NCBI GenBank assembly: GCA_000990355.1
Contig: LBSX01000002.1
Span: 6,000 to 69,999, forward strand
Origin: Candidatus Magasanikbacteria bacterium GW2011_GWC2_37_14
GTDB lineage: Bacteria; Patescibacteriota; Patescibacteriia; Magasanikbacterales; UBA922
Reading direction: 5' to 3'
DNA length: 64,000 bases
The notes beneath the pieces were generated by a model. It did no database searches. It saw only the letters and a program-made list of their open reading frames with translations, and was not told the DNA's origin. Position 1 is the first letter of the stretch. Every line of letters begins with the position of its first letter. Position numbers and translations under genes: made by a program. Shown here in pieces: positions 9,859-50,941 of this stretch.

Positions 9859-9865
9859 TTATAAG

Positions 9866-9937
9866 CTCGGGAGGTGGGGATCGAACCCACGACCATCACG
9901 TTAACAGCGTGCCGCTCTACCGCTGAGCTACTCCCGA
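9866..9937 (-). tRNA. tRNA-Asn (anticodon GTT)
   Basis: Manually folded cloverleaf. Acceptor stem TCGGGAG/CTCCCGA. D-arm GCTC-AGCGGTA-GAGC. Anticodon loop CTGTTAA (U33, GTT, A37). T-arm GTGGG-TTCGATC-CCCAC. Discriminator G. U1-A72 as in E. coli tRNA-Asn. CCA is not encoded. Confidence 0.85.
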
Positions 9938-47396: not shown

Positions 47397-49484
47397 ATGG
47401 AAAAAATAACAAACATCAACGACGAAAAAACTATTAGAATTGGTAAATTAAACGATTTAAAAAAACTTGGAGTAAATCCTTATCCAGCCAAAGCGCATAA
47501 AAAAAATACTTTAGAAGAAGCATTAAGCATGACCGATGGTGAGAAAGTTTGTTGTGCTGGTAGAATTATTACTTTTAGAGAAATGGGTAAATTAACTTTT
47601 TGTCATTTACAAGATGCTAGTGCAAAAATGCAAATTGCCTTAAAAGATGGTGAGATTGATAAAGAAAGTTATCATTTGTTTTTAAAGAAAATTGATTCTG
47701 GTGATATTATTCAAGTAGAAGGAGAAAGATTTACTACCCACAAAGGCGAAGCTTCTATTTTAGTTAAAAAATGGACCTTGCTTAGCAAATCACTTCTACC
47801 TTTACCAGATAAATTTCATGGATTACAAGATGAAGAGATTCGTTTGCGTAAACGATATTTAGAAATGATTGACAATCCCGAAGTAAAAGATATTTTTATT
47901 CGTAAAAGTAAATTTTGGAATAGTACTCGTCAATTTTTATTAAAAGAAGGATTTTTGGAAGTCGAAACCCCAGCCTTGGAAGTAACTGCTGGTGGAGCCA
48001 GTGCTACTCCATTTGTTACACATCACAATGCCCTAGATATTGATGTTTATTTACGAATTTCTATGGGTGAACTTTGGCAAAAAAGATTAATGGTTGCTGG
48101 TTTTGAAAAAACATTTGAAATTGGTAGACAATTTAGAAATGAAGGCATGAGTCGTGAGCATTTGCAAGATTATACACAAATGGAATTTTATTGGGCCTAT
48201 GCGGATTACAACATGGGTATGGAATTAGTAGAAAAATTAATTAAATATATTGCCAAAGAAACATATAACACACTAAAATTTACGATTGGTGATTTTGGTG
48301 AAATTGATTTAGGTGAAAAATGGGAGCGTTATGATTATGTTTCTATAATTAAAGAAAAAACTGGCGTAGATGTTTTAAAGACTAATGATAAGGAATTGAA
48401 AATTGAACTTAAAAAATTAAAAGTAGCCTATGAAGAAACCGAGGGTCGTAGTAGTTTAATTGATGCTTTATGGAAATTTTGTCGCCGGTCATTAAAAGGT
48501 CCTGGTTTTTTAATTAATGTACCTGTAGCTGTGTCTCCTTTAGCCAAAAGAAAAACCGATAACCCAGAATTAACCGAAAGATTTCAAATTATTATTGCTG
48601 GTTCTGAATTGGGCAATGGTTATTCCGAATTAAATGATCCAATCGATCAAGCAGAAAGATTTAAAGAGCAGGCCAGCATGCGTGAAGCCGGGGATAATGA
48701 AGCACAAATGCATGACACAGACTTTGTAGAAGCTTTGGAACATGGTATGCCACCAACCTGTGGTTTTGGTTTTTCCGAACGTTTATTTTCGTTTTTAGAG
48801 AACAAACCAATTCGCGAGTGTGTAATTTTTCCTTTGATGAGACCAGAAAAGGGTGATTTAGAAAAAATCAGTGTTGTCAGTAAAAAAAACAATGATGTTT
48901 TATTAAAACTTCCAATTACTCGTGAGGAGGCGTTATGTGCTATAAAAAAGTATACTAAAAAACCAGCAAATTTAAATCATTACCTAGAATCAGAAGTGGT
49001 AATGCGTGCTCTAGCAACACATTTAAAACAAAACGTGGAATATTGGGGTATGCTTGGGTTACTTCATGATATTGATTGGGAAATGACTGAGGATGACTCT
49101 ATAAAACATTTGACTAAAGCTCCAGAATTGTTAAAAGGATTAGGTTTTGATGATTATTTTATTGAAATTATTTTGTCTCATGGTTATGGTTGTAATTGTG
49201 CTGGGTTGAATGATAAAAAACGTTCAAAACAATTAGAATTTGCTTTGGCCTGTGCTGAGACAGTAACTGGGTTAATTTACAGTGTATCTTTAATGAGACC
49301 GGATAAAATTGCTACTTTAGATGCTAAATCGGTAATGAAGAAATTTAAGGATAAGAAATTTGCGGCTAAAGTAGATCGTGAGGTAATTAAAGAATGTGAA
49401 AAGATCGGTTTGGGTGTTGAGGAATTTTTACAATTATCAATCGAAGCTATTCGTTCGATTGCTGGTCAAATTGGTTTAAAATAA
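47397..49484 (+). CDS. lysS: Lysyl-tRNA synthetase (class II) fused to a C-terminal YqeK-like HD phosphohydrolase domain
   Basis: The LysRS core ends at the canonical ...CVIFPLMRP. A further 210 aa follow with the HD motifs H-x-LESEVVMRALATHL...GLLHDI, ILSHGYG and FALACAETV. Confidence 0.85.
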   Translation: MEKITNINDEKTIRIGKLNDLKKLGVNPYPAKAHKKNTLEEALSMTDGEKVCCAGRIITFREMGKLTFCHLQDASAKMQIALKDGEIDKESYHLFLKKIDSGDIIQVEGERFTTHKGEASILVKKWTLLSKSLLPLPDKFHGLQDEEIRLRKRYLEMIDNPEVKDIFIRKSKFWNSTRQFLLKEGFLEVETPALEVTAGGASATPFVTHHNALDIDVYLRISMGELWQKRLMVAGFEKTFEIGRQFRNEGMSREHLQDYTQMEFYWAYADYNMGMELVEKLIKYIAKETYNTLKFTIGDFGEIDLGEKWERYDYVSIIKEKTGVDVLKTNDKELKIELKKLKVAYEETEGRSSLIDALWKFCRRSLKGPGFLINVPVAVSPLAKRKTDNPELTERFQIIIAGSELGNGYSELNDPIDQAERFKEQASMREAGDNEAQMHDTDFVEALEHGMPPTCGFGFSERLFSFLENKPIRECVIFPLMRPEKGDLEKISVVSKKNNDVLLKLPITREEALCAIKKYTKKPANLNHYLESEVVMRALATHLKQNVEYWGMLGLLHDIDWEMTEDDSIKHLTKAPELLKGLGFDDYFIEIILSHGYGCNCAGLNDKKRSKQLEFALACAETVTGLIYSVSLMRPDKIATLDAKSVMKKFKDKKFAAKVDREVIKECEKIGLGVEEFLQLSIEAIRSIAGQIGLK

Positions 49485-49489
49485 AAATT

Positions 49490-49909
49490 ATGAAAACCGT
49501 AATGATCTTTGGCACTTTTGATATTGTCCATGCTGGACATTTGCATATGTTTAAAGAAGCCAAGAAATATGGTGATTTTTTAGTCGTTGTGGTTGCACGT
49601 GATCAAAATGTAGAAATAATTAAGGGTTTAGGGTCATTACATAGTGAAGAAGAAAGATTGTTGTTTTTAGAAAATATTAAATTAATTGATCAGGTTTTGT
49701 TGGGAGACAAAACTGATGTTTATAAAGTCGTAAATGAAATTAAACCAAATATAATTGCTTTAGGTTATGATCAAAAAATTTATGTAGACAATCTTGAAAA
49801 GGCTATCACCAATTTCGGGTTGAATACTAGAATAGTACGATTAGCACCTTATCAAGAAAATCGTTTAAAAAGTAATAAAATTCGTAAATATATTGAACGT
49901 TTAGTATAG
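49490..49909 (+). CDS. Cytidylyltransferase-like nucleotidyltransferase (RibL/TagD-like, HxGH superfamily)
   Basis: IFGTFDIVHAGHLHMFKEAKKYGDFLVVVVARDQNV. Confidence 0.65.
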   Translation: MKTVMIFGTFDIVHAGHLHMFKEAKKYGDFLVVVVARDQNVEIIKGLGSLHSEEERLLFLENIKLIDQVLLGDKTDVYKVVNEIKPNIIALGYDQKIYVDNLEKAITNFGLNTRIVRLAPYQENRLKSNKIRKYIERLV

Positions 49910-49912
49910 ATT

Positions 49913-50941
49913 ATGCAAAAAGTTTTAATTGCGACAACCAACCAAGGAAAATTTAATGAAACCAAGGAATTTTTGAGTGATTTGGCTTTTAATTTTATTA
50001 GTTTAAATGATTTGAACAAAAAAATTTCTCCACCAGAAGAAAACGAAGATAATTTGGAAAAAAATGCCATGTCTAAAGCGGTTTATTATGGAGAAAAAAC
50101 CGGTTTAATTACACTTTGTGATGATTCTGGTTTGTTTGTTAAAACTTTAAAAAACTTTCCCGGTATTTATTCAGCGCGAATTGCAAAAACCGATAAAGAG
50201 CGTTGTAAAATTATTTTAGAAAAATTAAAAAATAAAAAAAGCCGTTCTGCTATTTTTGCTTTAGTTTATGCACTCTATAACCCCAGCAATCAGGATCTAT
50301 ATTTAGCCAGTGGTATGACCAAGGGCAAAATTACCGAAAAGGAAATTGGCAAAAATGGTTTTGGTTATGACCAAATTTTTTATGTAAATGAAAAAAAGAA
50401 AACTTACGCTCAAATGAAAATTCAAGAAAAAAATTCTTGTTCGCATCGAGCTAAGGCCTTAAACAAAGTAAAATATTTTTTATTAAATCAGTTTGACCCA
50501 AAACATATTGTCGTTCCTTTTGGTATTATTGTAAAAGAAGGCAAAATGTTAATATCTCTACGTAATGATCCTCATCGTCCAAAATCCCACAAAAAATGGG
50601 AAATGCCTGGTGGGGGAGTAGATTTTGGAGATAATGTAGAATCTACATTATTAAAAGAAGTAAAAGAAGAAACAGGTTATAAAATAAAAATTATTAAGCA
50701 ATTGCAAGGAATTACTGTTAAAAGTGTTGCATACCCAAATTACAAATATCAAGTTTTTTTAGTTCCTTTTGTTTGTAAAATTATTAGTGGTAAATTAGCA
50801 TTGAACAGTAATGAAGTTTTGACTACAAAATGGATTAAACCAAATGATTACAAAAATTACAAATTTTTAGAAGGTAATAATATCATGTTAAAAAAATTAT
50901 TACCGCAATTAAAACAAGTTATTAAAGATTTTAAATTATAA
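49913..50941 (+). CDS. Ham1/RdgB-type dITP/XTP pyrophosphatase fused to a C-terminal Nudix hydrolase domain
   Basis: ATTNQGKFNE, DDSGL, FGYDQIF, SHR. C-terminal Nudix box GGGVDFGDNVESTLLKEVKEETGY. Confidence 0.75.
   Translation: MQKVLIATTNQGKFNETKEFLSDLAFNFISLNDLNKKISPPEENEDNLEKNAMSKAVYYGEKTGLITLCDDSGLFVKTLKNFPGIYSARIAKTDKERCKIILEKLKNKKSRSAIFALVYALYNPSNQDLYLASGMTKGKITEKEIGKNGFGYDQIFYVNEKKKTYAQMKIQEKNSCSHRAKALNKVKYFLLNQFDPKHIVVPFGIIVKEGKMLISLRNDPHRPKSHKKWEMPGGGVDFGDNVESTLLKEVKEETGYKIKIIKQLQGITVKSVAYPNYKYQVFLVPFVCKIISGKLALNSNEVLTTKWIKPNDYKNYKFLEGNNIMLKKLLPQLKQVIKDFKL

Follow-up and report, generated by a model that had tools for sequence, protein, structure and literature searches.

What does a phosphohydrolase domain do at the end of a lysyl-tRNA synthetase (LysRS)? 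This question is raised by the lysS gene in a 64,000-nucleotide stretch of Candidatus Magasanikbacteria bacterium GW2011_GWC2_37_14 (contig LBSX01000002.1, positions 6,000 to 69,999), referred to here as the window. The reading frame of this gene runs 210 amino acids past the LysRS core, through a 17-amino-acid linker and an HD/HDIG domain of about 190 amino acids. A first-pass annotation made from the sequence had described the product as LysRS fused to a YqeK-like HD domain that was predicted to hydrolyze diadenosine tetraphosphate (Ap4A). LysRS and this HD domain are functionally linked, as supported by fusion and adjacency that recur far beyond chance, while the assignment to YqeK needs revision.

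An in-frame fusion of LysRS and an HD domain

The gene and its modules are as follows.
47397..49484, + strand: whole lysS-HD fusion gene, a single ATG-initiated open reading frame (ORF) of 695 codons plus stop
47397..48851, + strand: class II lysyl-tRNA synthetase module, residues 1-485 (NF001756, TIGR00499, PF01336, PF00152)
47547-47783, + strand: OB-fold anticodon-binding domain of the LysRS part (PF01336)
47829-48839, + strand: LysRS catalytic core (PF00152)
48852..48902, + strand: linker GDLEKISVVSKKNNDVL, residues 486-502, with an A8 homopolymer at 48882-48889 and no homology to LysRS or HD
48903..49481, + strand: HD/HDIG metal-dependent phosphohydrolase domain, residues 503-695, of a family found mostly as free-standing proteins of about 185-195 amino acids

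The fusion's N-terminal portion is a fully canonical class II LysRS, with an OB-fold and a class II D/K/N core. The NF001756 profile matched residues 9-484 over model positions 2-488 (537.3 bits; cut-off, 468), and TIGR00499 matched up to residue 484/485 (483.7 bits; cut-off, 427.6). The Pfam models tRNA_anti-codon (PF01336) and tRNA-synt_2 (PF00152) covered residues 51-129 (46 bits) and 145-481 (236.5 bits), respectively. Because the curated LysRS models match end to end and stop at residue 484/485, the synthetase core ends at ...CVIFPLMRPEK, and the C-terminus that had been read from the sequence at CVIFPLMRP agrees with the model boundaries (residues 9-484/485). The same-frame extension of about 210 amino acids that had been noted is part of one 695-amino-acid ORF. 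Its identification as an HD hydrolase held up in hidden Markov model (HMM) searches, in which the isolated extension scored above the cut-off with both TIGR00277 HDIG (34.9 bits; cut-off, 27.6) and Pfam HD PF01966 (23.1 bits; cut-off, 22; 21.1 bits in the full-length scan).

An A8 run sits in the linker, and several relatives have lysS and HD as separate genes 9-51 nucleotides (nt) apart. Both observations would fit a missed stop or a homopolymer frameshift that joined lysS to a separate HD gene. However, the exact 695-amino-acid protein was predicted from 10 contigs, of which 9 are 50-200 kb long; the contig identical to the window's is Ga0209211_10000626 (JGI 3300025308). When the run at 48882-48889 was changed to A7 or A9 in a frameshift simulation, lysS stopped at residue 499-502, and the HD frame was then left without an ATG, GTG, or TTG before residue 534, past the first metal ligand, H528. 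A slip in the A8 run would cut off this ligand, and therefore only the fused reading yields a complete HD domain. The sister fusion L090 is 71% identical to the window's protein in LysRS and 70% identical in HD, with an unrelated linker. There are dozens of independent fusions with different linkers, which are 13-63 amino acids long, of low complexity, and mutually unrelated in sequence. On the strength of the 10-contig recurrence, the frameshift outcome, and L090 and the other independent fusions, an assembly artifact was rejected as so unlikely as to be negligible, and the genuine single-ORF fusion of the first-pass annotation stands.

A slip in the A8 run would also uncouple the two domains, and we saw no evidence of such use. 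At a further locus (L049, 1178-2848), a stop codon ends the LysRS ORF after it has entered the beginning of an HD domain (...HCRESEVIMRALAKHFGQDEEI*); the fusion could be decaying, the gene could be split, or the sequence could contain an error.

Family and metal site of the HD domain

A search with the extension returned 3904 homologous matches. The best 120 were all free-standing proteins of 183-198 amino acids (one of 332) with 53-65% identity, and the source-named proteins among them came from DPANN or Asgard archaea; two free-standing homologs lay in clearly archaeal gene contexts. With a profile built from divergent fused HDs only, 5640 matches were obtained, the best of which were free-standing proteins of 183-214 amino acids from Patescibacteria and Caldisericota. 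Since the best homologs are free-standing, the LysRS fusions appear to be a subset of a small stand-alone enzyme family. These searches place the HD domain in a large, uncharacterized family of free-standing HDIG proteins of about 185-195 amino acids, with a distribution that, by the same matches, spans bacteria of the candidate phyla radiation (CPR), Caldisericota, and DPANN and Asgard archaea.

The HDIG model was matched by 37/37 family members. The closest curated models beyond it were TIGR00295 (37/37 members; about 20 bits against a cut-off of 172), the HD region of RNase Y (36/37; best E, 3e-7), and the HD half of PRK12703 (34/37; best E, 7.6e-8; 13-15 bits against a cut-off of 434). Best E values of family members with these three models lie at about 1e-7 to 3e-7. 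Since these nearest models score about 13-20 bits against cut-offs of 172-454, TIGR00295, PRK12703, and RNase Y are relatives rather than the same family. To our knowledge, RNase Y is the only one of these three HD modules with a demonstrated activity.

Residue conservation was examined in an alignment of 57 copies, comprising 34 fused, 8 lysS-adjacent, and 15 free-standing domains. The conserved features are the following.
48978..48980, + strand: H528, first metal ligand (57/57)
49065..49079, + strand: H557-D558-I-D560-W561, where the HD doublet forms part of the family-specific motif HDxDW (H and D, 57/57; D560, 55/57; W561, 42/57)
49107..49109, + strand: H571, predicted second-metal ligand (57/57)
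49179..49181, + strand: H595 (SHGYG), predicted second-metal ligand (57/57)
49257..49271, + strand: E621-T-V-T-G625, last acidic ligand and invariant Gly (E, 36/57; D, 21/57; G625, 57/57)
49338..49379, + strand: basic C-terminal signature KKFKDKKFAAKVDR, K648...R661 (K648, 55/57; K653, 55/57; F655, 57/57; A656, 56/57; R661, 57/57)

The HD motifs that had been picked out by eye (H528, LLH557D558IDW, SH595GYG, and the acidic E621) were thus recovered. A six-residue H...HD...H...H...D motif is diagnostic of a dinuclear site, as in YqeK (PMC8177086). Because all six ligands of such a site are invariant in fused, adjacent, and free-standing copies, the fused HD domain looks catalytically competent, with an intact dinuclear metal site. 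The family signature KKFKDKxFA...R is strongly basic, conserved, and peculiar to this HD family; in the window, KKFKDKKFAAKVDR is a candidate phosphate- or nucleic-acid-binding element. The domain might instead be a noncatalytic accessory, a degenerate HD fold that serves tRNA binding or LysRS regulation like the HD of the glycyl-tRNA synthetase beta subunit (GlyRS-beta). We consider this very unlikely, as the 34 fused copies keep all six ligands without exception, like the free-standing enzymes, a conservation not expected of a purely structural module.

A Nanoarchaeota member of the family (P0104, 332 amino acids) has an extra N-terminal domain of about 135 amino acids, which matches the candidate defense model PDC-M05B (PADLOC; E, 2.5e-7) and looks HEPN-like by eye. 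For the window HD, a defense role was rejected, as PADLOC and PHROGs scans gave no defense-system or phage family.

Recurrence of the LysRS-HD pairing

The pairing was surveyed in three samples. Among 80 species-representative genome loci, 11 had an uninterrupted LysRS-HD ORF, and in a further 8 the HD was encoded separately, just downstream of lysS. From 1.8 billion cluster representatives, searched exhaustively, we obtained the 150 nearest LysRS clusters (50% identity), of which 35 carry a window-type HD as determined by a local profile search. One of them (P0180) is built the other way round, as HD-LysRS; it begins with a natural N-terminal Met, and its ligands are intact. In some clusters the HD is placed behind additional inserted domains (e.g., LysRS-HAD/B3_4/DUF2000-HD). 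The first-pass annotation had called such a fusion unusual; it turns out to be common among relatives of the window LysRS, though it is undescribed in the literature searched.

The third sample was free of LysRS bias and consisted of 80 metagenome loci found by the HD-only patterns L[LV]HD[IV]DWxxT and KK[FM]K[DE]KxFA, with at least 1.5 kb of upstream sequence in only 50 of the 80. A class II lysS lay upstream on the same strand in 12/80 loci: 2 were fused, 6 were separated by 9-51 nt, and 4 had one intervening gene. When the flanking ORFs were clustered, lysS was the sole strongly recurrent neighbor; weaker recurrence was seen for SerRS (4 loci), NUDIX (3), and MetRS (3). Where lysS and the HD gene are not contiguous, the intervening genes are of diverse kinds (IS200 transposase, NYN, NIF3 with Maf, DUF2283) and point in no common direction. 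The functional link that had been suspected between LysRS and the HD domain is borne out by this recurrent fusion and adjacency.

The pair is not confined to bacteria. It occurs in true archaeal loci beside genes for a Cbf5-type TruB, a TrmY-family methyltransferase, and PriS/PriL, and the HD pairing is specific to class II lysS even in archaea. In DPANN-type loci (L004, 3971-6013; L068, 3875-5981; L003), a bacterial-type class II lysS is followed immediately by the HD gene. The lysS of these loci is about 60% identical to the CPR enzyme, suggesting a joint transfer of lysS and the HD gene between CPR bacteria and DPANN archaea.

In a rough neighbor-joining tree, the window HD groups with stand-alone or lysS-adjacent HDs (58-66% identity), remote from most fused HDs (25-50%), and the window LysRS is closest to unfused Magasanikbacteria enzymes (71-82%). 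Because its HD groups with unfused HDs and its LysRS with unfused enzymes, we infer that the LysRS-HD fusion arose more than once and that the window's fusion is independent.

Relationship to YqeK

Several features agree with literal membership in YqeK (COG1713), with the downstream nucleotidyltransferase gene re-creating a nadD-yqeK operon. YqeK, which cleaves Ap4A symmetrically to 2 ADP in Firmicutes, Thermotogae, and Deinococcus-Thermus, is likewise an all-alpha HD protein of about 190 amino acids, it shares the H...HD...H...H...D set that predicts two metals, and the H-to-HD spacing of 29 residues is identical. When the family profile was compared with the PDB, the best matches were YqeKs (2OGI and 8JJA), at a nonsignificant E of 0.05-0.09 and over residues 8-66 only. 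However, the YqeK model did not match the window HD at E<=1, and no YqeK model matched any of the 37 family members at E<=0.1. A single-sequence phmmer search of the extension against the PDB found nothing relevant. The AlphaFold2 model of the HD domain (pLDDT, 94.8; pTM, 0.91) gave no Foldseek match in the PDB at E<=1e-3; YqeK appeared as one among many HD proteins (TM, 0.43-0.57) and was not the nearest structural relative over the whole domain.

The motifs differ as well. In all characterized HD phosphatases, YqeK among them, an Arg is strictly conserved some 3 residues ahead of the first His (PMC8177086). YqeK reads KRFNH or KRLTH at this point, whereas position 525, three before H528, is Asn in the window and L, D, T, N, or S across the family, never a conserved Arg. 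The HD doublet of YqeK and HDIG proteins stands in an HDxxK or HDIGK context, and in YqeK the Lys three residues after the doublet is catalytic (Lys62 in S. pyogenes; PMC11857287). In contrast, the window HD family has HDxDW and no conserved Lys after the doublet in the 57-copy alignment. The third His follows HD by 14 residues in the window HD and by about 33 in YqeK. Unlike YqeK, the family has E or D as its last ligand, carries its own HDxDW and KKFKDKxFA...R signatures, occurs without nadD or rsfS context, and belongs to CPR, DPANN, Asgard, and Caldisericota taxa. By HMM, the gene next to the fusion is not a NadD, and it keeps its synteny with lysS with or without an HD.

As judged from these searches and motifs, the window HD is not a YqeK family member, and we regard literal membership as highly improbable. 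Of the proposed YqeK-like Ap4A hydrolase, the six-ligand dinuclear motif stands; the YqeK HMM match, the Arg, the Lys of HDxxK, and the spacing of the third His do not.

Possible substrates of the HD domain

The leading hypothesis, which we favor tentatively and which falls somewhat short of probable, is that the HD domain hydrolyzes Ap4A or other adenylylated by-products of LysRS. The fusion would be one bifunctional polypeptide in which a class II LysRS is tethered via a short flexible linker to an intact HD phosphohydrolase, and the HD would act on something generated at, or handled by, LysRS. It would hydrolyze adenylylated side products released by the LysRS active site, of which Ap4A, related dinucleoside tetraphosphates (Np4N), and possibly Np4-capped RNA ends or stray aminoacyl-adenylate are candidates, and the hydrolyzed by-products would be returned to the ADP/AMP pool. 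The HD would thus work like YqeK or ApaH, outside both families, held beside the main cellular source of Ap4A. We rate this mechanism first as the only one that accounts for the pairing with class II LysRS specifically.

Class II LysRS is the textbook source of Ap4A. Its production of Ap4A is documented, it caps RNA with Np4A in vitro, and ApaH and YqeK have been reported for other lineages (PMC10148737). Where the first-pass annotation had joined an Ap4A source to an Ap4A-degrading domain, Ap4A synthesis is therefore documented, and Ap4A hydrolysis is a reasonable proposal. Further observations point to a nucleotide substrate. The first is the pairing with class II lysS, for which a general tRNA enzyme would have no obvious need. 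The second is the nucleotide-housekeeping context of free-standing members, namely, pyrophosphatase, HD-NUDIX, and adenylate kinase genes at two loci, and Maf. The third consists of the best PDB profile matches, which are YqeKs though nonsignificant, and the identical H-to-HD spacing. The dinuclear site, which YqeK also has, and the Ham1-NUDIX gene that follows two genes after the fusion in the window point the same way. A broader proposal, possible but more speculative, is that the HD family is an unrecognized class of dinucleoside-polyphosphate (Ap4A/Np4N, possibly Np4-cap) hydrolases serving CPR, DPANN, Asgard, and Caldisericota, to which the reported ranges of ApaH and YqeK do not extend. 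The LysRS fusion would then be self-cleaning, destroying its alarmone by-product at the source, and LysRS would in these lineages be an enzyme with modular cis clean-up or proofreading domains (HD, B3/4, and DUF2000) not known from LysRS elsewhere.

Several findings weigh against by-product hydrolysis. Most HD family members do not adjoin lysS, and the same C-terminal slot in sister LysRSs holds B3/4, DUF2000, or tRNA_bind, sometimes together with HD. The family fails the hallmarks of YqeK and the HD phosphatases described above (HMM match, Arg before the first His, and Lys of HDxxK). Its best structural neighbors are the tRNA-binding HD of GlyRS-beta and the phosphodiesterases HD-GYP and PgpH. 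Among sequence models, those that come closest to it are the RNase Y HD region, TIGR00295, and the PRK12703 HD half. The sequence and structural neighbors of the family thus lean to the phosphodiesterase/HDIG side, or to RNA chemistry.

The HD of the bacterial CCA-adding enzyme removes a 2',3'-cyclic phosphate or 3'-phosphate from a damaged tRNA 3' end. The LysRS-appended HD could similarly be a phosphodiesterase acting on tRNA(Lys) or RNA ends, removing 2',3'-cyclic or 3'-phosphate, or an RNase Y-like nuclease, and so constitute a tRNA quality-control module. The match of 36/37 and 34/37 family members to the HD of RNase Y and the Trm56-fused HD of PRK12703, respectively, is in line with this, as are the missing phosphatase-type Arg, the strongly basic KKFKDKxFA...R motif, and the tRNA-modification genes beside archaeal lysS-HD pairs. 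The B3/4, DUF2000, and tRNA_bind domains that occupy the same slot, also together with HD, agree with it as well, and the top structural neighbor, the GlyRS-beta HD, binds tRNA. However, that similarity is barely above the similarity to many other HD proteins, and the GlyRS-beta HD is catalytically dead. A general enzyme for the repair of tRNA ends would have no obvious reason to pair with LysRS alone, in its class II form even in archaea; the free-standing members lie beside NUDIX, pyrophosphatase, adenylate kinase, and Maf genes, not RNA-repair genes; and no ligase or kinase partner was seen in the neighborhoods examined. We regard an RNA-end activity as rather doubtful, if less so than any of the remaining alternatives.

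A further alternative is a signaling-nucleotide hydrolase, in which the HD degrades cyclic di-AMP (c-di-AMP), pApA, (p)ppGpp/(p)ppApp, or a similar messenger and couples the signal to translation. We consider this improbable, given that no specific family HMM matched, that no link between such messengers and LysRS is known, and that no cyclase or synthetase genes recur in the HD neighborhoods. The recurrence of the pairing across many tiny-genome bacteria and archaea suggests a clean-up or repair activity tied to LysRS.

Other domains appended to LysRS

The HD is not the only domain found at this position, and the LysRS termini of CPR-type lineages are a hotspot for added domains. In the set of 150 nearest LysRS clusters, 76 have no extra domain; the HD is present in 35, DUF2000 in 17, and a PheRS-type B3/4 domain in 11 (in two of them at the N-terminus), and extensions that matched no named domain occur in about 15. 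Combined architectures include LysRS-tRNA_bind-B3_4-HD (1072 amino acids), LysRS-B3_4-HD, LysRS-DUF2000-HD, LysRS-B3_4-DUF2000, and LysRS-HAD-HD. Examples are found at L013 (5441-5887), L016 (5450-5902), L019 (5438-5890), L036, L038, and L063 and in proteins P0127, P0145, P0155, P0185, P0196, P0199, P0200, P0212, P0228, P0234, and P0235.

B3/4 is the editing-domain family of PheRS-beta. DUF2000 has a solved member (2GAX) and a fold that we take to be like that of peptidyl-tRNA hydrolase 2. We know of no class II LysRS with an appended hydrolytic or editing domain. Since LysRS is not known to have editing domains, the B3/4 and DUF2000 extensions may be undescribed cis-proofreading modules.

Neighboring genes and other features of the window

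One further gene bears on the YqeK assignment.
49490-49909: CTP_transf_like/HxGH nucleotidyltransferase (PF01467, 72 bits)

The first-pass annotation had described this gene as NadD/RibL/TagD-like and as an echo of the nadD-yqeK neighborhood. It is an HxGH nucleotidyltransferase, but NadD models reached only E of 0.005-0.06, and its best subthreshold matches were RfaE domain II and TagD-type models. The gene directly follows lysS in the closest HD-less relatives (L002, L012, L017, L014, L020, and others) and is not present downstream of most other LysRS-HD fusions. Because it is present without HD and gone after most fusions, it belongs to a GreA-lysS-X-Ham1/Nudix-SerRS synteny and not to the HD. 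The neighborhood echo was therefore not confirmed; the gene is not NadD and tracks lysS in HD-less relatives.

Next in the window, at 49913-50941 on the + strand, is a gene for a 342-amino-acid fusion of a Ham1/RdgB noncanonical NTP pyrophosphatase (residues 4-187) and a NUDIX domain (residues 204-320). Two nucleotide house-cleaning enzymes are thus combined in one protein two genes downstream of the window HD, and this Ham1-NUDIX fusion is kept downstream of lysS in related Magasanikbacteria-type loci. At L028 (5460-6530), where the LysRS is 80% identical to the window's, a different HD protein of 356 amino acids is encoded between lysS and the nucleotidyltransferase. It matches Pfam HD with 38.5 bits, has weak Cas3-HD-like PADLOC matches, and is unrelated to the window HD family; no such protein recurred in the other loci.

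Elsewhere (L086, 3471-5088; L089, 1513-5064), a free-standing HD gene is followed by a NUDIX gene with a 4-nt overlap, which suggests an operon. Both of these loci have an inorganic pyrophosphatase gene upstream on the opposite strand (directly adjoining in L086) and an adenylate kinase gene a few genes away. A NIF3/DUF34 gene lies beside the HD in two unrelated loci, in the order lysS-NIF3-Maf-HD in L154 (2160-5555) and HD-NIF3 in Caldisericum (L087, 4001-5649).

The window has a low GC content of about 32%, shares PBP2-GreA-lysS-...-SerRS-MurF synteny with the Magasanikbacteria clade, and encodes a LysRS with 82% identity to the enzyme of a Candidatus Magasanikbacteria metagenome-assembled genome. 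When the window was scanned for Rfam families and tRNAs, a single tRNA-Asn at 9865-9937 was the only match, and neither a leader nor a riboswitch appeared near lysS. The GC skew flips from positive to negative at about 57000-59000, with the cumulative skew peaking near 58 kb and the GC content falling to 27% at 56-58 kb. This flip could mark a gene-orientation switch or a replication landmark.

Comparison with known systems

Synthetases with appended hydrolytic domains are already known, as is a synthetase with an HD fold (GlyRS-beta). Searches of the full-text literature, with most subscription journals outside its scope, turned up neither this HD family nor any LysRS fused to HD, B3/4, or DUF2000. 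In CPR and relatives, some half of the nearest LysRS clusters carry extra terminal domains, and the commonest of these is an intact two-metal HD. Its recurrent fusion or adjacency gives an orphan HD family with thousands of members a concrete, testable partner. If Ap4A is the substrate, the family would supply the Ap4A hydrolase that several major uncultivated lineages have been missing; if tRNA is the substrate, the pairing would represent a new form of tRNA repair or quality control linked to a synthetase.

In GlyRS-beta, the HD is an internal, noncatalytic domain that has lost the doublet and binds the tRNA acceptor arm; in E. coli, the doublet is replaced by Ser-Lys (PMC8464048). In contrast, the LysRS-appended HD is terminal on a flexible linker, keeps all ligands, and exists in free-standing forms. 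The two are 8-11% identical in sequence, and their similarity is at the level of the fold. In PRK12703, the archaeal tRNA Cm56 methyltransferase-HD protein, a tRNA enzyme likewise carries a related HD as a fusion.

With YqeK, the window HD may share a common logic, the disposal of Ap4A made by LysRS. If the Ap4A hypothesis is right, ApaH, the PPP-family Ap4A hydrolase and Np4 decapping enzyme of proteobacteria, could be its functional analog, with an unrelated fold and metal site; a fusion of ApaH to LysRS has never been reported. LysX (MprF-LysRS) and the cis-editing B3/4 domain of PheRS resemble LysRS-HD in the covalent linkage of a synthetase with an enzyme by which its product is used or corrected. 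Known editing domains hydrolyze aminoacyl esters, whereas HD domains are phosphoester or phosphoanhydride hydrolases, and the B3/4 type of editing domain is also fused to the sister LysRSs found here.

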